Of a stretch of DNA of 43,253 nt, positions 2,223 through 17,479 are shown one piece after another. Below the pieces are notes generated by a model. That model searched no databases. It was not told where the DNA came from and saw nothing but the letters and a program-made list of their open reading frames with translations. The stretch spans positions 1 to 43,253 of IMG/VR virus record IMGVR_UViG_2778261009_000005; one strand, written 5' to 3'. The stretch is from a virus (lineage: Duplodnaviria; Heunggongvirae; Uroviricota; Caudoviricetes). A program made the translations under genes and the position numbers. Each line of letters begins with the position of its first letter. Positions within the stretch are counted from its first letter, which is position 1.

Positions 2223-2260
2223 CTTAACGTGAGTTTTAGTTCCACTGAGCGTCAGACCCC
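2223..2260. repeat. Tn3-family 38-bp terminal inverted repeat (IRR)
   Basis: CTTAACGTGAGTTTTAGTTCCACTGAGCGTCAGACCCC, one mismatch to the Tn3 IR as remembered. Confidence 0.85.
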
Positions 2261-2467
2261 TTTTACCGCGCTTTTCCGCGTTTTGCTGGCTGGTGGGCGC
2301 TCTTTCTGTTTAGCGATACGGCGGTCGATAGAATCCCGCATTTTCTGATATTGCGATTCTCGCCAAGCGGGGTCAGCCAACTTTTCCCGTTGCCGAGCGA
2401 TCGCTCGTTCTCTGGCTGCCTTCTGCCACTCGCGGCGCTGTTCAAGTTTTTGTTCGATTGTTTTCAT
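2252..2467 (-). pseudogene. ref: ref-like gene (P1 Ref, RecA-dependent nuclease), N-terminal ~69 codons; 3' part displaced by the transposon
   Basis: Highly basic N-terminus MKTIEQKLEQRREWQKAARERAIARQREK... (about 21 K/R in 70 aa); the reading frame runs into the Tn IR at 2260 and the last codons are transposon-derived; lies downstream of cre. Confidence 0.45.
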
Positions 2468-2690: not shown

Positions 2691-2717
2691 GCCTGGCTCC
2701 TTGCCAGGCTTTTTTTA
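2691..2717 (+). terminator. Intrinsic terminator (plus strand)
   Basis: GCCTGG-ctccttg-CCAGGC followed by T7 (tttttttattt). Confidence 0.6.
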
Positions 2718-3026
2718 TTTCATCATGGAAGCTGTTAACGCTTTGGATCTTGCTGAACTGATTGAAAGGGCATTGTTTACCTTACCCAGGAGTTCGCCAA
2801 ATTCCACCATCACTCTAGTAAGCCCGCGCCGCGCTTCCTCCTCCGTTGCATTCATCACAAAATGTTCAGCACTCCGCATGCTTTTAACGGGGAACGCAAC
2901 AGATATCGAGTCGATATCAGGCATCCTATCGCTCAACTTTACGGTGACAATGACAGATGGTGACTGAATTTGAGAGCTTACAGACAGCACCACATATTTT
3001 CCGTCTATTTTGAAATCCTTCCGCAT
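2715..3026 (-). CDS. Hypothetical protein between cre and ref (cra position)
   Basis: 103-aa ORF preceded by a C1-operator-like site; no recognisable motif. Confidence 0.3.
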   Translation of the reverse strand: MRKDFKIDGKYVVLSVSSQIQSPSVIVTVKLSDRMPDIDSISVAFPVKSMRSAEHFVMNATEEEARRGLTRVMVEFGELLGKVNNALSISSARSKALTASMMK

Positions 3027-3042
3027 GTGTCACCATAAATAT

Positions 3043-3059
3043 CAAATAATTAGAGCAAT
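3043..3059 (-). promoter_or_regulatory. C1 operator-like site
   Basis: Minus strand ATTGCTCTAATTATTTG, 14/17 match to consensus. Confidence 0.5.
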
Positions 3060-3076
3060 CAGTTGCAAATAAACGG

Positions 3077-4108
3077 CTAATCGCCATCTTCCAGCAGGCG
3101 CACCATTGCCCCCGTTTCACTATCCAGGTTACGAATGTAGTTCATGACAATATTTACGTTGGTCCAGCCACCAGCTTGCATGATCTCCGGTATTGAAACT
3201 CCGGCGCGGGCCATATCTCGCGCGGCTCCGACACGGGCACTGTGTCCAGACCAGGCCAGGTATCTCTGACCAGAGTCATCCTTAGCGCCGTAAATCAATC
3301 GATGAGTTGCTTCAAAAATCCCTTCCAGGGCGCGAGTTGATAGCTGGCTGGTAGCAGATGGCGCGGCAACACCATTTTTTCTGACACGGCAAAACAAGTA
3401 GTTATTCGGATCATCAGCCACACCAGAGACAGAAATCCATCGCTCGACCAGTTTAGTTACCCCCAGGCTAAGTGCCTTCTCTACACCTGCGGTGCTAACC
3501 AGCGTTTTCGTTCTGCCAATATGGATTAACATTCTCCCACCGTCAGTACGTGAGATATCTTTAACCCTGATCCTGGCAATTTCGGCTATACGTAACAGGG
3601 TGTTATAAGCAATCCCCAGAAATGCCAGATTACGTATATCCTGGCAGCGATCGCTATTTTCCATGAGTGAACGAACCTGGTCGAAATCAGTGCGTTCGAA
3701 CGCCAGTGCCTGTTTTGCACGTTCACCGGCATCAACGTTTTCTTTTCGGATCCGTCGCATGACCAGTGAAACAGCATTACTGTCACTTGGTCGTGGCAGC
3801 CCGGACCGACGATGAAGCATGTTTAGCTGGCCCAAATGTTGCTGGATAGTTTTTACTGCCAGACCGCGCGCCTGAAGATATAGAAGATAATCGCGAACAT
3901 CTTCAGGTTCTGCGGGAAACCATTTCCGGTTATTCAACTTGCACCATGCCGCCCACGACCGGCAAACGGACAGAAGCATTTTCCAGGTATGCTCAGAAAA
4001 CGCCTGGCGATCCCTGAACATGTCCATCAGATTCTTGCGAACCTCATCACTCGTTGCATCGACCGGTAATGCAGGCAAATTTTGGTGTACGGTCAGTAAA
4101 TTGGACAT
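3077..4108 (-). CDS. cre: Cre site-specific recombinase (tyrosine recombinase)
   Basis: 343-aa ORF MSNLLTVHQNLPALPVDATSDEVRKNLMDMFRDRQAFSEHTWKMLLSVCRSWAAWCKLNNRKWFPAEPEDVRDYLLYLQARGLAVKTIQQHLGQLNMLHRRSGLPRPSDSNAVSLVMRRIRKENVDAGERAKQALAFERTDFDQVRSLMENSDRCQDIRNLAFLGIAYNTLLRIAEIARIRVKDISRTDGGRMLIHIGRTKTLVSTAGVEKALSLGVTKLVERWISVSGVADDPNNYLFCRVRKNGVAAPSATSQLSTRALEGIFEATHRLIYGAKDDSGQRYLAWSGHSARVGAARDMARAGVSIPEIMQAGGWTNVNIVMNYIRNLDSETGAMVRLLEDGD matches P1 Cre as remembered. Confidence 0.97.
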   Translation of the reverse strand: MSNLLTVHQNLPALPVDATSDEVRKNLMDMFRDRQAFSEHTWKMLLSVCRSWAAWCKLNNRKWFPAEPEDVRDYLLYLQARGLAVKTIQQHLGQLNMLHRRSGLPRPSDSNAVSLVMRRIRKENVDAGERAKQALAFERTDFDQVRSLMENSDRCQDIRNLAFLGIAYNTLLRIAEIARIRVKDISRTDGGRMLIHIGRTKTLVSTAGVEKALSLGVTKLVERWISVSGVADDPNNYLFCRVRKNGVAAPSATSQLSTRALEGIFEATHRLIYGAKDDSGQRYLAWSGHSARVGAARDMARAGVSIPEIMQAGGWTNVNIVMNYIRNLDSETGAMVRLLEDGD

Positions 4109-4430
4109 TTAACACTCAGATAATGGTTTTAAGTAAAGTGTACAGGATCGGCTCTGCCTTTACCTGTTTATGGTTCTCGTCATAGAAACGCCAGCGACCG
4201 CGCGTGCGTTCTATTTTTTCTTCACCGCGCGATAATGACAGTTGGCAACTATCACGATCAAACCCTTTTGCCCGCCAGTAACCACGGTTTTTCTCAAGCT
4301 CAAGATGAGTGGACACTTTAGCAGTTGAATATCCCATTTTTCACCTCTGATTGATTGGTGGTGCTAAGTGCGCTACGCGAAATCTGTAGGACTAACACCG
4401 CCAATTTTTCACAGATTTTACGTAGCGCAA

Positions 4431-4510
4431 CCTTGATCAAATGATCAAGTGATCACTATTTGACCTGCCAAGGTATTGAACTGTATGGATTTACAGGTAA
4501 ATTGATCATA
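4431..4510. promoter_or_regulatory. Cluster of four GATC (Dam) sites in the cre upstream region
   Basis: GATC at about 4435, 4443, 4451 and 4504; P1 cre promoters are known to be Dam-sensitive. Confidence 0.45.
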
Positions 4511-4526
4511 TTCAATAACCCTTAAT

Positions 4527-4560
4527 ATAACTTCGTATAATGAACGCTATACGAAGTTAT
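4527..4560. other. lox recombination site (loxP arms, variant spacer)
   Basis: ATAACTTCGTATA-ATGAACGC-TATACGAAGTTAT: perfect 13-bp loxP arms, 8-bp spacer differing at 2 positions from canonical ATGTATGC. Confidence 0.85.
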
Positions 4561-4603
4561 TAGGTCTGAAGAGGAGTTTACGTCCAGCTGCGTATAAAAA
4601 TCA

Positions 4604-4620
4604 AGAATTATTAGAGCAAT
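4604..4620 (-). promoter_or_regulatory. C1 operator-like site (Op99-region)
   Basis: Minus strand ATTGCTCTAATAATTCT, 15/17 match. Confidence 0.6.
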
Positions 4621-4680
4621 AAATTTTGAGAGAAAAATCCCACTCCACCAGCCAAAAACTGGATTGTTTTTCATAGTTGT

Positions 4681-4703
4681 TTGACAATTGCTCTAATAAA
4701 TTA
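4681..4703 (+). promoter_or_regulatory. Promoter -35 TTGACA followed by C1 operator-like site (Op99-region), rightward toward coi/c1
   Basis: TTGACA at 4681-4686 followed by ATTGCTCTAATAAATTA (16/17) at 4687-4703. Confidence 0.6.
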
Positions 4704-4941
4704 TAGTTTTGCCGCCGTTTCGTAATACAACTTTGGATTCACTATTTAATGTGTCTTCAGCGTTGTAGAGCGGCTCAGAAGGAAATGAGCAAACAGGGAA
4801 ACCTTATACAACGGCATTACAGCTATGCATTGCTCATCTTACACACAGCGCAATGTTGTAGGATTACCCCAGCATGGATCATGGGTGAAACAGTAGGTCA
4901 GAGCTTCAGGCTCTGTGTTGTCAATACAGTGAGGCATAATT

Positions 4942-5151
4942 ATGGCTTTCATTCCACCAACCATCGACGACGTTAGACATTGCTCTAACGCTTTATCTGT
5001 AGACCCCGCCGAAACCGACGCTGCCCGCGCCATTGCTGAACACTACTCAAAGATATCCAATCAGGAGTACCGCATCACCCAAGACGACCTGGATGATCTC
5101 ACTGACACAATCGAATATCTCATGGCCACTAACCAGCCAGACTCACAATAA
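4942..5151 (+). CDS. coi: Coi, C1 inactivator
   Basis: 69-aa ORF MAFIPPTIDDVRHCSNALSV... directly upstream of c1, with a GAGG ribosome-binding site. Confidence 0.85.
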   Translation: MAFIPPTIDDVRHCSNALSVDPAETDAARAIAEHYSKISNQEYRITQDDLDDLTDTIEYLMATNQPDSQ

Positions 5152-5167
5152 ATGCACTAATAAATCT
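5151..5167 (+). promoter_or_regulatory. C1 operator-like site upstream of c1 (Op99a position)
   Basis: AATGCACTAATAAATCT, 14/17 match; followed by TATAAT at 5189-5194. Confidence 0.5.
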
Positions 5168-5261
5168 ATTATTTTCGTTGGATCCTTCTATAATGGTGGC
5201 CAACAACTCCCAGTGTAATCCGCTGTGAGTTGTTGGCCATGTCAATTCTGGAGGAGGATCA

Positions 5262-6113
5262 ATGATAAATTATGTCTACGGCGAACAACTGTACCAGGAG
5301 TTCGTCAGCTTCAGGGATCTCTTTCTAAAAAAAGCTGTTGCACGCGCCCAACACGTTGATGCCGCCAGCGACGGTCGTCCTGTTCGCCCGGTTGTCGTTC
5401 TGCCGTTCAAAGAAACGGACAGCATTCAGGCTGAAATTGATAAATGGACTTTAATGGCGCGGGAACTGGAACAGTACCCAGACCTCAATATCCCAAAGAC
5501 TATTTTATATCCAGTGCCTAACATCCTTCGCGGTGTGCGTAAGGTTACAACTTATCAGACAGAAGCTGTGAACAGCGTCAACATGACCGCTGGCCGCATT
5601 ATTCATCTGATTGATAAGGACATTCGCATCCAGAAAAGCGCGGGGATCAATGAGCACAGTGCGAAATACATAGAGAACCTGGAAGCAACAAAAGAGCTAA
5701 TGAAGCAGTACCCGGAGGATGAAAAATTCCGTATGCGTGTACACGGCTTTAGCGAAACAATGTTGCGCGTCCATTACATTTCCAGTAGCCCTAACTACAA
5801 TGATGGTAAATCAGTTAGTTACCATGTGCCGCTGTGTGGTGTGTTTATCTGCGATGAAACTCTCCGTGATGGAATCATCATCAACGGTGAATTCGAGAAA
5901 GCAAAATTTAGCCTTTATGACTCTATAGAACCGATCATCTGCGACCGCTGGCCGCAGGCAAAAATATATCGCCTGGCAGATATTGAAAATGTAAAAAAAC
6001 AAATTGCCATCACTCGCGAAGAGAAAAAGGTCAAATCAGCCGCATCAGTTACGCGCAGCCGTAAAACTAAGAAGGGGCAGCCAGTAAACAGCAACCCCGA
6101 AAGCGCGCAATAG
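5262..6113 (+). CDS. c1: C1 repressor of lysis (immC)
   Basis: 283-aa ORF MINYVYGEQLYQEFVSFRDLFLKKAVARAQ... matches P1 C1 as remembered; GGAGGAGG ribosome-binding site. Confidence 0.93.
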   Translation: MINYVYGEQLYQEFVSFRDLFLKKAVARAQHVDAASDGRPVRPVVVLPFKETDSIQAEIDKWTLMARELEQYPDLNIPKTILYPVPNILRGVRKVTTYQTEAVNSVNMTAGRIIHLIDKDIRIQKSAGINEHSAKYIENLEATKELMKQYPEDEKFRMRVHGFSETMLRVHYISSSPNYNDGKSVSYHVPLCGVFICDETLRDGIIINGEFEKAKFSLYDSIEPIICDRWPQAKIYRLADIENVKKQIAITREEKKVKSAASVTRSRKTKKGQPVNSNPESAQ

Positions 6114-6138: not shown

Positions 6139-7623
6139 TTATTCATTAAGCCATGCCAGAGCTTCATCAACCTGCGCTTCGTCTTCGACGCTAAGCACTT
6201 CATCTTGGGGAACATAGTTCGCCAACATAGCGAAACAATATGTATCCCAATGGTCCGGTGAGTGCAGGTTGAGTTTTTTCTTCATATCTTCCTTTGACAT
6301 CACCTTCCATTGACCTGCGGAATTTATCCCTACCGGTATCTTTGATGCTTCCTCTATAGTCGCAGCCCCCTTATCAAGCCGCATACGCCCTGATTTTACA
6401 GCTTCTGCCGCCTGAATATTCGCGAAAGCGCGCATATCGAAATAAAGGCTTTTATCTTCACGGCTGTGCATCTTTTTACCCCAGCGGATACGCTGGACGG
6501 TAATGCCATAGCGTTCGTACATTAGATCAGCCGTCGATTTCCCCAAGCCATCGCCATCAATAGCTATGGTTATGTTCGGGAACCGTTCTGGGTTACATTC
6601 TGCGAAAATCTTGGCGGCTAACTGCGTTTCTGTAACGTCTGTGTATTCCAGCATACGATAGTTGATTACACGGCGTTTATTTCGCTGGCCGGACACCATC
6701 ATGATATTAATAACGGACTTATCTCGTCCTGTGCCACCAGCAACGTCAACACATGCAACCCAGCCCCATCCTTTGGCAATCTTGACCTTTCGCCGCGTCG
6801 CCCGCTCAACCTCATCACGACCAAGAAGAAAGCCATCTTGAGATTTGGGAAATTCACCACGTACTTTGATCATGTACATGGGGTTATCACGACCGCCATA
6901 CTCCGCAAGTTTTGCTCGTATAAATTTTGCATCTACAAGCGGAGATTCTTCACTATTCAGTATTATCGCAGTAAACAATCCATCAGGATTTCCCGGGCGA
7001 ATAGCTAGTCTGTGGTGTGAATCGTAGAAATAGCCTGAAGGTCGCGTAGGCTGGGAAAGAAGCAGAATACGGTTATCCTTACCGGTCAGCGCACCTGTTA
7101 TCACACTGAATGCTTTATCACTCACACCCGACGCTTCGTCGATGATATACAAGAGATGATCGGCGTGTTCACCAGCCAACGCCTCCTCATTTCCGGGGCG
7201 ACAGGACTTTATCAATATTGTCCAAACACCCTTGCCAGTCACCTCAAAAAAAGACGTTTCTGTAAGAATGAAATACTTCGACAACCACGGGAATCTGCTA
7301 ACAGCAGTAGCCCAATTGCTCTTTATGTATTTGAAAATACCATCAAGGACTTGCTGTCTTTTGTTAGCGACCAGAATGACGCGAGCGCCGGGGAAAAACA
7401 TGATGAAGAGTATTGCAATGATACTCGTCATATCCGATTTACCAGTACCATGGCCGGAGGTCACACTTGTCCAACTGCCGTCCTGCTGCGTGGACTCAAT
7501 GATCTCATCCTGCTGCCAGGTTGGTGTCTTCCCAAACAACACATCAGCGGCCGCAATCCAGTCATAACGATATAGCGCCACAAGCTCGCGCCAACGTGGG
7601 TCCGTTACGCAACTTCTGGCCAT
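6139..7623 (-). CDS. pacB: PacB, pacase/terminase large subunit
   Basis: 494-aa ORF immediately downstream of pacA; P1 gene order. Confidence 0.9.
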
Positions 7624-8816
7624 TAATCATCATCCCCGTACAGTTTGCGGGTAACTTCTTCGTCTTCCTCCTCGTCTTCGTCCAGATCCTGTTCAAGCCA
7701 TGCTTCGTTTGATATGCCTTCCGCATCGACATCACCATAACCACCTGTATCGACGATATCGGCAATTTCTTCTCTACGATGCTCAATCCACAATGCCGCA
7801 TCAGCGCGGCGGCTGGCGGCCCGTTCTCGCGCGATTTTATCCAGATCTTCAAGTGATGGAGCGCCAGATGCTGTTTGGTTTTCCTCATCATCGGTATTGG
7901 TCTTAGGAGCACGCAGATCGGCTTTGATTTGCTCCAGCATCAGGGGCGGCACTTTTCCTCCATGCGCCTCGATGAATTCAGCCGCTTCCAGCACTGACCA
8001 GTTATTTTCACGCTTTCGTTCGTATGCCAGCTTAACAATGCCAGCTTGCCCCATAGACAAAGCGTGCTTTTCCGCCTCCCGGCTTTCTTTTCGATAGTTA
8101 TTCCGGATGCTGTAAATGGTGTTGATCAGGCTGCTTATCTGCGCGGAACAGCTGTTTAGCATGCTCGCGATACGGTATTCAGGCGGAGTACCTTCATCAT
8201 CGTCTTTTTGCTGATCGCGCATTTCCTGCACCAGGCGAATACACGTATCCCTGGCGTTCTCCAGCATAAGGAGATGAGAAAGAGACTTTTCCAGAAGAGT
8301 GGTTTCCAGAACATCGGCCCCGGACCGACGCAACATAGCGCGCGCGGCCTTCCGCGCTTCAACGTTATCTATCAGGTAATCGCCAGCTTCGAATTCAAAG
8401 CGTTCACCATCATCATCCAGGGTGTCGCGTTCCAGGCGATCACGTAAGGTCCGGTGGGCGCGGGTGATCACGTCATGATCATCTGAACGATCATTTATGC
8501 GCTTATTTTGGCGCTTCGCATTATCGACTGCGGCACTGACAACGGCATTAACTCTTTGTTTTTCATCCATTTCAGCCACAACGTGATCACCTGCACGTTG
8601 ATCATTAGCGTGATCAATGATCATGCTTTTTAGTGGTTTCCTGACAGGCTTATTTGGCTTACGGCTGTCCGCTGTTCCGGTGTCTTCTTTGAATGCACGG
8701 AGATAACGACGTGCGGTGTTTGGGTTGAGATTAAACTCGGCGGCATATTGTGCGATGGTGTAACCACCATCTCGCGCCAGGCGAGCAAAATTCTTCTTGT
8801 GATCGTCCCAGGTCAC
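7623..8816 (-). CDS. pacA: PacA, pacase/terminase small subunit
   Basis: 397-aa ORF (GTG start with AAAGGAAG ribosome-binding site) containing the pac site; acidic C-terminus. Confidence 0.9.
8461..8625. other. pac packaging site (seven GATC-containing hexamers in clusters of 3 and 4)
   Basis: TGATCA/TGATCG-type elements at about 8467, 8478, 8490 and 8586, 8601, 8613, 8620 inside pacA, as described for the P1 pac site. Confidence 0.75.
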
Positions 8817-11476: not shown

Positions 11477-13039
11477 ATGAAAATGACAAGTATTCAACAA
11501 CGTGCAGAGCTTCATCGTCAAATCTGGCAAATTGCTAACGATGTCAGGGGTTCGGTCGATGGATGGGATTTTAAGCAATACGTTCTGGGCGCACTTTTCT
11601 ACCGTTTTATCAGCGAAAATTTTTCCAGTTATATTGAAGCCGGTGATGACAGTATCTGTTATGCGAAACTGGATGACAGCGTAATTACTGATGACATTAA
11701 AGACGATGCCATCAAAACTAAAGGCTACTTCATCTACCCCAGTCAGCTTTTCTGCAACGTAGCTGCGAAAGCAAATACCAATGACAGACTGAACGCAGAT
11801 TTAAACAGCATCTTCGTTGCTATCGAAAGTTCTGCTTACGGCTACCCTTCAGAAGCAGACATCAAAGGTTTGTTTGCTGATTTCGATACCACCAGTAACC
11901 GCCTGGGTAACACCGTTAAAGATAAAAATGCCCGCCTGGCTGCGGTTCTGAAAGGGGTTGAAGGGTTAAAACTTGGTGACTTCAACGAACATCAGATTGA
12001 CCTGTTCGGTGATGCCTATGAGTTCCTGATTTCTAACTATGCGGCAAATGCCGGTAAGTCAGGCGGTGAGTTCTTTACACCGCAGCACGTCTCCAAGCTG
12101 ATTGCACAACTGGCTATGCACGGGCAGACCAACGTTAACAAAATCTACGACCCGGCAGCGGGTTCCGGCTCACTGTTGTTGCAGGCTAAAAAGCAGTTTG
12201 ATAACCATATCATCGAAGAAGGCTTTTTTGGTCAGGAAATCAACCATACAACCTATAACCTGGCACGTATGAACATGTTTTTGCACAACATCAACTACGA
12301 CAAGTTTGATATCAAGCTGGGTAATACACTGACTGAGCCACACTTCAGAGATGAAAAACCGTTTGATGCCATCGTTTCTAACCCGCCGTATTCGGTGAAA
12401 TGGATTGGCAGCGATGACCCGACGCTGATTAACGATGAACGTTTTGCCCCGGCTGGCGTCCTGGCCCCCAAATCCAAAGCTGACTTTGCGTTTGTACTAC
12501 ATGCGCTGAACTATCTTTCGGCCAAAGGTCGTGCTGCGATTGTCTGCTTCCCGGGTATTTTTTACCGTGGCGGCGCGGAGCAGAAAATCCGTCAGTATCT
12601 GGTCGATAATAACTATGTCGAAACCGTGATTTCACTGGCACCGAACCTGTTCTTTGGCACCACTATTGCTGTAAACATTCTGGTGCTGTCTAAACATAAA
12701 ACGGATACCAAAGTTCAGTTTATTGATGCCAGCGAACTGTTCAAAAAAGAAACCAACAACAATATCCTGACCGATGCCCATATCGAACAGATTATGCAGG
12801 TATTTGCCAGCAAGGAAGATGTTGCTCATCTGGCGAAATCTGTTGCGTTTGAGACTGTTGTCGCGAATGACTATAACCTGTCGGTGAGCAGCTATGTGGA
12901 AGCGAAAGATAACCGCGAAATTATCGATATCGGTGAGCTGAATGCAGAGCTGAAAACCACGGTCAGCAAAATCGACCAGTTGCGTAAAGATATTGATGCA
13001 ATTGTGGCTGAAATTGAAGGCTGCGAGGTGCAGAAATGA
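11477..13039 (+). CDS. hsdM: Type I restriction-modification methyltransferase subunit HsdM (N6-adenine)
   Basis: 520-aa [28 protein letters not shown]... with AdoMet motif and NPPY catalytic motif (VSNPPYS). Confidence 0.92.
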
Positions 13040-14241
13040 GCGAGATGAGTTATCTGGAAAAATTGCTGGATGGGGTTGAGGTTGAGTGGAAGACACTTGG
13101 GCAAACTTGCAAAATTGAAACAGGAAAGCTTAATGCGAATGCGGCTGTTGATGATGGAGAGTATATGTTCTTCACGACAGCCAAAGAGACAAGCAAAATT
13201 GATAAATTCCGCTGGGATACAGAGGCATTGCTGATTGCAGGCAATGCGAATGTTGGTGAGGTGAAGCATTACATCGGCAAGTTTGAGGCTTATCAGCGCA
13301 CCTATGTTCTGACAAATTTCGACGAAAATGTAAGTGTTAGATTTTTGTATTTTGTGCTTAGCCATAGCCTGAAGAAATATCTCGAGGAAAGAACAAATAG
13401 CGCGGCAATGACATATATCGTGCTATCAACCTTAGAGAATTTCCCTATCCCCATCCCCTGCCCGGATAATCCGGAAAAATCCCTTGCCATCCAGTCTGAA
13501 ATCGTTCGGATTCTGGATAAATTTACTGCACTTACCGCTGAGCTTACCGCTGAGCTTAACATGCGTAAAAAACAGTACAACTACTATCGCGACCAGTTGT
13601 TGAGTTTTAAAGATGGTGAGGTTGAGTGGAAGACTTTGGGGGAAATTGGAGATTTTACATATGGATATGCAGCCAAAGCCATGGATTCAGGAGATGCCCG
13701 TTTCGTGAGAATTACTGACATAAATAAAGACGGGAAGCTATCGAAAGAAAACCCAATGTACGTTGAATTAAATGAGGAAAATGAGAAATATACCTTAGAC
13801 AAAAATGATTTACTCATGGCAAGAACTGGGGCAACCTTTGGTAAAACAATGATTTTTGAAGAAGATTATCCAGCAGTATACGCTGGTTTTTTAATAAAGT
13901 TGAACCTAAATAAAACGATTATTAATGCCAAATATTACTGGCACTTTGCACAAAGTGATTTTTTTTGGGAACAGGCTAATAAATTAGTATCTGGTGGTGG
14001 GCAACCACAGTTTAATGCTAATGCACTGAAACAAGTCAGAGTACCTATTCCATACCCATCTCACCCTCAAAAATCTTTAGACGAACAGGGGCGTATTGTG
14101 GATATTCTGGATAAGTTTGATGCAATCACAGCTTCCATCACCGAAGGTCTCCCGCGTGAAATCGAGTTGCGCCAGAAACAATACGAGTACTATCGTGATT
14201 TACTGCTCAGTTTCCCAAAACCTGAAACTGTCAGTAATTAA
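13036..14241 (+). CDS. hsdS: Type I specificity subunit HsdS (Type IC, EcoR124-like)
   Basis: 401-aa ORF with two target-recognition domains each opening GEVEWKTLG, central TAELTAEL repeat and two conserved ILDKF...YYRD..LLSF regions; start overlaps the hsdM stop. Confidence 0.9.
13531..13557 (+). repeat. Tandem 12-bp repeat (ACCGCTGAGCTT x2, coding TAEL-TAEL) in hsdS central conserved region
   Basis: CTT-ACCGCTGAGCTT-ACCGCTGAGCTT-AAC read directly; the same repeat exists in EcoR124I/II hsdS, where copy number sets the recognition-site spacer length. Confidence 0.8.
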
Positions 14242-14362
14242 TTGACCATTATTACAGACCGGATCACCTTAACATCCGGTCTGTATATAGACTATTTTTT
14301 ACACGCCGGAAAGCACCCTTAACGCCCTTCCGGCCCTTGCCAGACGGCATAAAGGATGCGCT

Positions 14363-17300
14363 ATGACTCATCAGACACACACTATTGCTGAATCCAATAA
14401 CTTTATCGTCCTTGATAAGTACATCAACGCTGAGCCAACAGGCGACAGCTACCAGAGCGAATCGGACCTGGAACGTGAACTGATTCAGGACCTGCGGAAT
14501 CAGGGCTATGAATTTATATCCGTAAAATCTCAGTCGGCTATGCTGTCCAATGTTCGGGAACAGCTTCAGAGCCTCAATGGTGTGGTGTTTAATGACAGCG
14601 AGTGGCGGCGTTTCACGGAGCAGTATCTGGACAACCCGAGCGATGGCATTCTGGATAAGACCCGTAAAATCCATATCGACTATATTTGCGACTTTATTTT
14701 TGATGACGAGCGACTTGAGAACATCTATTTGATAGATAAAAAGAATCTCATGCGCAATAAGGTGCAGATTATCCAGCAGTTTGAACAGACGGGTTCTCAT
14801 GCTAACCGTTATGACGTCACGATCCTGGTTAATGGTTTACCGCTGGTGCAAATCGAACTAAAAAAACGCGGGGTGGCGATTCGTGAGGCTTTCAACCAGA
14901 TACATCGTTACAGTAAAGAGAGTTTTAACAGCGAAAATTCCCTGTTTAAGTATCTGCAACTGTTTGTCATTTCTAACGGCACCGATACCCGTTATTTTGC
15001 CAACACGACAAAGCGCGATAAAAACAGTTTTGACTTCACCATGAATTGGGCGAAATCAGACAACACGCTGATTAAAGACCTCAAAGACTTTACCGCTACC
15101 TTTTTCCAGAAACATACTCTGCTGAATGTTCTGGTGAACTACAGCGTTTTTGACAGTAGTCAGACGCTACTGGTGATGCGACCGTACCAGATTGCCGCCA
15201 CCGAGCGCATTCTGTGGAAAATTAAGAGTTCCTTTACAGCGAAGAACTGGTCAAAACCGGAAAGCGGTGGGTATATCTGGCACACTACCGGTTCTGGTAA
15301 AACCCTCACCAGCTTTAAAGCCGCGCGTCTGGCAACAGAGCTGGACTTTATTGATAAAGTCTTCTTTGTGGTCGACAGGAAAGACCTCGATTACCAGACC
15401 ATGAAGGAATATCAGCGTTTTTCGCCAGACAGCGTCAACGGCTCGGAAAATACCGCAGGCCTTAAACGAAATCTGGATAAGGACGATAACAAAATTATCG
15501 TCACTACTATTCAGAAACTTAATAACCTGATGAAAGCAGAAAGCGACCTGCCTGTATATAATCAGCAAGTGGTGTTTATATTTGATGAATGCCACCGCAG
15601 CCAGTTTGGAGAAGCGCAGAAAAACCTGAAGAAGAAATTCAAACGCTATTATCAGTTTGGTTTTACCGGCACACCTATTTTCCCGGAAAACGCCTTAGGC
15701 TCAGAAACGACCGCCAGCGTATTTGGTCGTGAATTGCATTCGTATGTAATTACCGATGCGATTCGTGATGAAAAAGTGCTCAAATTCAAGGTGGACTATA
15801 ACGATGTGCGGCCACAGTTTAAGTCTTTAGAGACAGAAACTGACGAGAAAAAACTAAGTGCGGCTGAAAATCAGCAGGCGTTTCTTCATCCCATGCGTAT
15901 ACAGGAAATTACGCAATATATTCTGAATAACTTCCGCCAGAAGACGCACCGTACTTTCCCTGGCGCAAAAGGTTTTAATGCTATGTTGGCAGTGAGCAGC
16001 GTGGATGCTGCAAAAGCCTATTACGCGGCGTTTAAACGGTTACAAGAGGAAGCCGCTAATAAATCTGCAACTTATAAACCGCTGCGTGTTGCGACAATCT
16101 TCTCCTTTGCCGCTAATGAAGAACAAAATGCCATTGGTGAAATTTCCGATGAAACTTTTGATACCAGCGCAATGGACAGCAGTGCTAAAGAGTTTCTTGA
16201 CGCTGCAATTCGTGAGTATAACAGCTATTTTAAAACTAACTTCAGCACCGACGGTAACGGTTTTCAGAACTACTATCGCGATTTAGCCCAACGGGTTAAA
16301 AATCAGGATATCGATCTGTTAATTGTCGTGGGGATGTTTTTAACTGGCTTCGATGCTCCAACATTGAACACGCTATTCGTCGATAAAAACCTGCGTTTTC
16401 ACGGCTTGATGCAGGCATTTTCCCGCACCAACCGTATTTATGATGCAACTAAAACCTTCGGTAATATCGTCACTTTCCGGGATCTGGAACGCTCAACTAT
16501 TGATGCCATAACGCTGTTTGGTGACAAAAACACCAAAAATGTGGTTTTAGAAAAGAGTTATGCAGAGTATATGGAAGGCTTTACTGATGCTGCCACTGGT
16601 GAAGCTAAGCGCGGCTTTATGGCAGTAGTTTCAGAACTGGAACAACGGTTCCCTGACCCTGCCAGTATTGAAAGTGAAAAAGAGAAGAAAGACTTCGTTA
16701 AACTGTTTGGTGAATACCTGCGTGCCGAGAACATCCTGCAAAACTATGATGAATTTGCCACGCTGAAAGCCCTGCAACAAATCGATCTTAGCGATCCTGT
16801 TGCGGTAGAAAAATTCAAAGCAGAACATTATGTGGATGATGAAAAGTTCGCTGAATTGCAAACGATTCGTCTCCCTGCTGAACGCAAGATTCAGGATTAT
16901 CGTTCTGCCTATAACGATATTCGTGACTGGCAGCGCCGCGAGAAAGAAGCTGATAAAAAAGAAAAATCAACCACTGACTGGGATGACGTGGTTTTTGAGG
17001 TCGATTTGCTGAAGTCTCAGGAAATAAACCTGGATTATATCCTTGGACTGATTTTCGAACACAACAGACAAAATAAAGGCAAGGGCGAAATGATCGAAGA
17101 GGTCAAACGCTTAATTCGTTCAAGCCTGGGGAACCGGGCGAAAGAGGGCCTGGTGGTCGATTTTATTCAGCAAACGAACCTGGATGATTTACCGGATAAA
17201 GCCAGCATCATTGACGCATTCTTTACGTTTGCTCAACGCGAACAGCAACGTGAAGCAGAAGCATTGATAAAAGAAGAAAATCTCAATGAAGATGCAGCAA

Positions 17301-17479
17301 AACGCTATATTCGCACGTCTTTAAAACGCGAATATGCCACCGAAAATGGCACAGAATTAAACGAAACATTACCAAAACTTAGTCCATTGAATCCGCAATA
17401 TAAAACGAAAAAACAGGCAGTTTTCCAGAAAATCGTCTCGTTTATTGAGAAGTTTAAAGGCGTAGGCGGAAAAATATAG
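14363..17479 (+). CDS. hsdR: Type I restriction endonuclease/translocase subunit HsdR
   Basis: 1038-aa ORF with helicase motifs TGSGKT and DECH and an N-terminal nuclease region; own ribosome-binding site AAAGGA. Confidence 0.92.

Follow-up and report, generated by a model that had tools for sequence, protein, structure and literature searches.

A new natural lox spacer allele in a P1-like phage-plasmid

The lox site of the P1-like phage-plasmid described here carries an 8 bp spacer, ATGAACGC, that is a new natural allele and was seen nowhere else in the collections searched. It lies on the plus strand at positions 4527-4560 of the window, the term used here for the whole stretch of viral DNA analysed (43,253 nucleotides). 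The mechanism, the enzyme and the architecture of such sites are already known, and it is the spacer allele that is new. The explanation that we favour, and consider probable, is that this is the resident lox of the element, a functional substrate of an unaltered Cre with a rare natural spacer allele.

The 34-mer ATAACTTCGTATAATGAACGCTATACGAAGTTAT is built as ATAACTTCGTATA-ATGAACGC-TATACGAAGTTAT, with a left 13 bp Cre-binding arm (4527-4539, plus strand), the spacer (4540-4547, plus strand) and a right 13 bp Cre-binding arm (4548-4560, plus strand). Both arms are identical to those of loxP, with 26 of 26 bases matched and no mismatch in either arm, as the first-pass annotation had claimed. Its description of an asymmetric spacer with two non-canonical positions was also borne out: compared with the canonical ATGTATGC, position 4 (4543) of the spacer has A in place of T and position 6 (4545) has C in place of T, and the spacer differs from its own reverse complement, GCGTTCAT. 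Positions 1-3 and 7-8 are canonical, including the bases that flank both Cre cleavage points; both changed positions fall inside the 6 bp strand-exchange overlap, and the central TpA step is lost through T4A. The direction of the spacer relative to cre is as in P1. With up to 3 mismatches allowed, 4527-4560 was the sole match in the 43 kb to a pattern of both arms around an 8 bp spacer, and the chance expectation for the arm pattern was 0.00 (100 dinucleotide-preserving shuffles). All of the structural features of a P1-type lox site are present (arms, 8 bp asymmetric spacer, locus and cognate Cre), and the canonical spacer that marks loxP sensu stricto, ATGTATGC, is missed by two substitutions, which make the site an allele of lox rather than loxP proper.

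The site is where P1 normally has it, with cra-cre on one side and imcAB-coi-c1 on the other. Gene order was compared with the P7 and phiW39 immC records and with the P1 reference, and was found to be the same. On the minus strand it begins with c8 (2715-3026), cre (3077-4108) and cra, the Cre-associated ORF (4116-4337), which is annotated in P7 and phiW39 and is identical to P1 Cra; the intergenic region that follows (4338-4526), taken together with cra, matches what is annotated in P1 as the regulatory region of cre. On the immC side of lox lie the imcAB fusion (4749-4976), coi (4942-5151) and the c1 repressor gene (5262-6113), all on the plus strand, and then pacB and pacA (6139-8816, minus strand) in the P1/P7 order. 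With imcAB, coi and c1 on the 4749-6113 side, the site is placed at the lox locus known from P1. The cognate tyrosine recombinase had been described at first pass as canonical, and its 343 residues are indeed all those of the NC_005856 Cre (100% identity), with 16 of 1032 nucleotides of cre differing from NC_005856, 16 of them synonymous and none non-synonymous. An identical protein with a wholly synonymous set of differences marks the recombinase as canonical and points to purifying selection on the Cre-lox system. The exact Cre protein was found in 12,643 index blocks of an assembly collection.

Several other features of the element were noted. Further along the window are a type I restriction-modification system, a Dmt-like methyltransferase, repA and parAB. 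The restriction-modification system (11477-17479) is complete, with hsdM (520 aa), hsdS (401 aa) and hsdR (1038 aa), and its neighbour in sister loci is a doc/phd-like pair of genes (Fic/PhdYeFM). Its exact hsdS allele was listed in 94 index blocks, and 10 of 10 loci examined were P1-like contigs. A single 75-aa ORF, a fusion of imcA and imcB, is identical to P7 Rgc/ImcAB, and in a 15-billion-protein collection this exact sequence was present on one contig only, the P7 genome. The start of the window lies within a Tn3-family transposon (region 1-2467), with tnpR (477-1070), blaTEM-1 (1253-2113) and a 38 bp terminal IR with 1 mismatch (2223-2260); a ref' ORF of 71 codons (2252-2467, minus strand) was left by insertion of the transposon in ref. 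The insertion falls at approximately P1/P7 coordinate 2284, and since its site and orientation are unlike those of the P7 Tn3 (AF503408, 2619-7568), it represents a separate transposition event into this gene. The shared ImcAB/Rgc and TEM-1 had raised the suspicion that the window was phage P7 itself. This was rejected, as identity to AF503408 is 97.8% over 7.3 kb, the P7 lox is canonical and the P7 transposon sits at another site in the opposite orientation.

The rarity of the allele was established with megablast searches for the exact variant 34-mer, using a 28-base word that canonical loxP cannot seed. There were no exact copies in PLSDB (72,556 plasmids), in INPHARED (50,697 phage records) or in 5,426 RefSeq complete E. 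coli genomes; as a positive control the same query design with the canonical site returned 673 PLSDB records, which validated the method. Shortening the query made no difference, with no matches to a 22-nt core pattern of the variant in IMG/VR and JGI metagenomes and no copies in PLSDB of a 20-nt variant core taken without the outer arms. One metagenome match to ATGNNCGC (L319) was discarded as a chance match in unrelated GC-rich DNA. Records that were opened inside lox (P1, P7, RCS47 and JL22) would evade a 34-mer search; the alignments of all four start just after spacer position 6 and are without the C. The P7 lox proved to be canonical once the record junction was reconstructed, and both spacers in the P7 and phiW39 GenBank records are canonical. 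When PLSDB was searched with the variant 34-mer at a word size of 11, there were again no exact copies, two full-length sites were one step off, and approximately 690 sites were two or three steps off, essentially the canonical class. Of 693 complete E. coli genomes with a lox-like site, none carried the exact variant and one had a site a single step away. The first-pass annotation had allowed that this spacer could be the standard one in a known sublineage; no such sublineage was found, with zero copies in five collections.

Across P1-like elements the survey of lox spacers put the canonical spacer at about 94-95% of natural sites, with ATGAACGC nowhere else. A sample unbiased for lox was obtained from IMG/VR by retrieving loci through Cre homology, and among its 68 evaluable sites 64 were canonical, two had single arm substitutions and two (2/68, approximately 3%) were spacer variants, ATGTTCGC and ATGCATGC. 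The one-step neighbour ATGTACGC, with the position-6 change alone, is present in the E. coli plasmids NZ_CP020522.1 and NZ_CP107058.1. These plasmids resemble the window element in their perfect arms, their locus and T>C at position 6, but they do not have T4A, their Cre has four substitutions and their cre-side flanks are approximately 95-97% identical to the window; the Cre variant shared by the two ATGTACGC plasmids (L224 and L225) carries S110C, Q144L, A249S and A252S. In all of the P1-locus spacer variants found, the changes are restricted to positions 4-6 and ATG..GC is kept, and lox2272-type changes at positions 2 and 7 were absent among the natural sites surveyed. Cre homologues that are 77-79% identical to P1 Cre (IMG/VR loci L019, L101 and L094) also adjoin perfect loxP arms, with a perfect canonical loxP in L019 and L101 and the spacer ATGTGTGT in L094. 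From these comparisons the 34 bp site appears to be conserved far more strongly than the recombinase. Perfect loxP, often in several copies per scaffold, was also present in drafts of unrelated bacteria (among the matches listed, L104-L183), including Gemmata, Paracaedibacter, Legionella tunisiensis, Sediminibacterium and Dechloromonas. These were rejected as natural sites, as they look like residual 454 paired-end linker and hence assembly contamination.

To place the allele among its relatives, window positions 2700-4900 (2,201 bp) were aligned with 73 relatives, giving 74 sequences. The column at spacer position 4 is T in 72 of 74 and that at position 6 is T in 70 of 74, with the position-6 C common to the window and three of the 73 relatives. 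The left arm is invariant in all 74 sequences and the right arm has single substitutions in two, the window not being among them; polymorphic columns number 0 and 2 in the two arms (13 each) against 18 and 31 in the flanking 100 bp on either side. With arms that are near-invariant while their flanks are polymorphic, the site is judged to be maintained by selection and not to be decaying. The same alignment bears on whether the allele is an artefact of sequencing or assembly, or a lox variant engineered in the laboratory, which we regard as very unlikely. The T>A at position 4 is private to the window and the collections searched hold no identical element (best matches 99.2%), as such an origin would predict. 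However, the window has just two private bases in the 2,201 bp when set against 73 relatives, namely spacer position 4 (4543) and a synonymous change at 3353 in cre, which indicates a low error rate; both spacer changes are substitutions and not homopolymer indels; three further records have the position-6 C independently; and the backbone is that of a natural P1-like element with 1-2% scattered, mostly shared divergence. The possibility of a sequencing error, raised in the first-pass annotation, is accordingly considered unlikely. To our knowledge, ATGAACGC matches none of the engineered lox sites 511, 5171, 2272, N, m2, m3 and m7. Nor was it found in the main text of published spacer-library papers, which speaks against an engineered origin.

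The nearest relatives in the lox region (approximately 99.0-99.2% identical) all have the canonical spacer. Sister elements were also sought through the hsdS allele, and the one locus that reached lox (L321, 98.8% identical over 21 kb) is canonical. The other carriers of the position-6 C are not close relatives, being 95.1-95.8% identical to the window over 2.2 kb, and this base is present on at least three local haplotypes. We asked whether the window and the ATGTACGC or ATGTTCGC carriers had inherited the position-6 C on one common haplotype, and rejected this, as it is with other sequences that the window has its neighbouring rare alleles in common. The distribution of this base would fit repeated T>C mutation as well as its transfer through exchange at the lox site. 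Judged from the alleles observed, the simplest path, and the most likely one, would run from the canonical spacer to ATGTACGC and then to ATGAACGC, with the last step private to the window element. We propose that the allele arose in this way by point substitution, T6C plus the private T4A, and that it probably persists as a polymorphism that is neutral or close to it. That the spacer is so nearly invariant in nature (approximately 94-95% of sites), even beside a Cre that is approximately 79% identical, argues that changes in it are not wholly neutral. We note that the left (cre side) and right (c1 side) flanks of lox are phylogenetically uncoupled (loci L004-L103 and L229-L236); one locus, L051, is 96.9% identical to the window to the left of lox and 99.9% identical to the right. 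Such uncoupling would fit a role of lox as a hotspot for crossovers in nature.

P1 uses Cre-lox for plasmid dimer resolution and for cyclisation of terminally redundant phage DNA. In the window element both processes would pair two copies of its own site, and because the spacers of its own copies always match, the allele should cost the element little or nothing. Two Cre monomers would bind the two perfect arms and cut the top strand of the spacer at 1|2 and its bottom strand at 7|8, with the 6 bp overlap then being swapped between the partner sites; these are the cleavage positions described for Cre (PMC4777119). Published screens give some indication of how well a matched pair might perform. 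Of 6000 matched spacers, 84% recombined efficiently, and Cre was found to prefer the canonical outer bases A4', G3 and C4, with inefficient spacers enriched for outer-position changes and T at position 3 the worst (Hoersten, 2024; PMC11260471). All three preferred bases are kept in the window spacer, and their retention suggests efficient self-recombination of ATGAACGC. In Cre-expressing E. coli, matched pairs went to completion in 33 of 33 cases and the central TA was not required (Sheren, 2007; PMC2018622), a step that Hoess (1986) and Lee and Saito (1998), as cited in PMC2018622, regarded as important.

Efficient self-recombination is not guaranteed, given that approximately 16% of matched spacers were inefficient, with sequence-specific effects (PMC11260471). 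One alternative is that the substitutions, the loss of the central TpA in particular, lower Cre activity even between identical copies of the site, and that this is tolerated since Cre-lox is non-essential for P1 maintenance. Besides the inefficient fraction of matched spacers, this would fit with the statement in PMC2018622 that no mutant spacer reached wild-type efficiency in the work of Lee and Saito or of Sheren, and with a strong natural conservation that suggests the canonical spacer to be optimal. We nevertheless think it unlikely, as inefficiency concentrates in changes of the outer bases A4', G3 and C4, none of which is altered here, and as it grows with the number of mismatches, being 7.6% at three and dropping with fewer (Hoersten, 2024; PMC11260471); Cre and both arms are also perfectly preserved.

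A different outcome is predicted for pairing with the canonical loxP of other P1-like elements, which would bring together overlaps mismatched at two positions (4 and 6). These two mismatches are expected to reduce Cre exchange with loxP-bearing elements and not to abolish it. Unmatched pairs still went to completion in 12 of 21 cases in Cre-expressing E. coli, with in vitro means of 4.6% for unmatched and 30.5% for matched pairs (Sheren, 2007; PMC2018622), and cross-reacting LoxPsym pairs recombined in E. coli, leaving mutated scars (PMC10850332). In the results of Lee and Saito as summarised in PMC4777119, position 7 was the strongest discriminator and positions 3-6 were 'less perturbed'. 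As positions 3-6 discriminate only partially and unmatched pairs often recombine in E. coli, recombination with loxP is expected to be reduced but leaky, amounting to partial exclusion. The first-pass annotation had taken the site to be heterospecific relative to laboratory loxP; strict heterospecificity is stronger than the literature allows, and heterospecificity of a probably leaky kind is plausible.

The loxP sites of P1 (NC_005856) and P7 (AF503408, AY751747) have the arms, the 8 bp spacer length and spacer positions 1-3, 5 and 7-8 in common with the window site, as well as the locus and orientation (cra-cre / imcA/coi/c1), and the window Cre is that of P1; the window departs from them in its two spacer substitutions, T4A and T6C, with loss of the central TpA. 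The engineered sites lox511 (ATGTATaC), lox5171 (ATGTgTaC) and lox2272 (AaGTATcC) have, like the window site, wild-type arms and one or two overlap substitutions. They embody the concept of a site that is self-compatible with reduced loxP compatibility, a concept that the window site would share. All of them, however, change position 7, the most discriminating (lox2272 also position 2), whereas the window site, a natural one, changes the less discriminating positions 4 and 6. Natural systems that do not cross-react, Dre/rox of phage D6, Vika/vox, Panto/pox and Nigri/nox, also pair a tyrosine recombinase with an inverted-repeat site on a P1-related or analogous plasmid prophage, but they have diverged recombinases (Dre is approximately 40% homologous to Cre; PMC4777119) and other arms, whereas the window element has changed the spacer only.

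Another possibility is that heterospecificity is adaptive, the spacer change having been selected because it keeps Cre from driving cointegration or exchange between the element and P1-like loxP elements that reside in the same host or superinfect it. Four observations would favour this. Two of the ten rare window alleles (those in at most 4 of the 74 sequences) in 2.2 kb lie inside the 8 bp spacer (binomial P ~6e-4, a post hoc statistic for a region chosen because it looked odd); the position-6 C has appeared on several haplotypes, as noted above; the uncoupled flanks imply frequent natural exchange at lox or close to it; and the lox region is present in as many as 4 P1-like copies in some E. 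coli genomes. The post hoc nature of the clustering statistic counts against its use here, however, and the allele is a singleton in a population where the low frequency of spacer variants shows no diversification or frequency-dependent spread. The substitutions also fall among positions 3-6, the weakest discriminators against loxP, and none of the natural sites has the more discriminating changes of the lox2272 type (positions 2 and 7). We therefore regard selection for isolation as improbable. There is a similarly low probability that natural lox spacer alleles, with their changes at positions 4-6 and the recurrent 6C, form recombination-compatibility groups in which ATGAACGC would be a selected 'private' lox. 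If this were true, a private lox would preserve dimer resolution and cyclisation while shielding the element from Cre-driven cointegration and marker exchange with the loxP majority, and ATGAACGC would be a ready-made, naturally validated orthogonal lox.

For the reading that we prefer, a resident lox with a rare natural spacer, the practical consequences are small. The window element would not act as a standard loxP partner in Cre-based work on natural P1-like plasmids, and its site is a naturally occurring candidate for a lox variant that carries its mutations at inner positions and is compatible with itself. The wider pattern is that the loxP spacer is strongly conserved in nature, approximately 95% of sites being exactly canonical even where the adjoining Cre is approximately 79% identical. 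A single-copy site should drift freely, and this conservation is mildly puzzling. If spacer alleles do affect exchange between co-resident phage-plasmids, then alleles such as ATGAACGC would bear on the recombination of these carriers of resistance genes.
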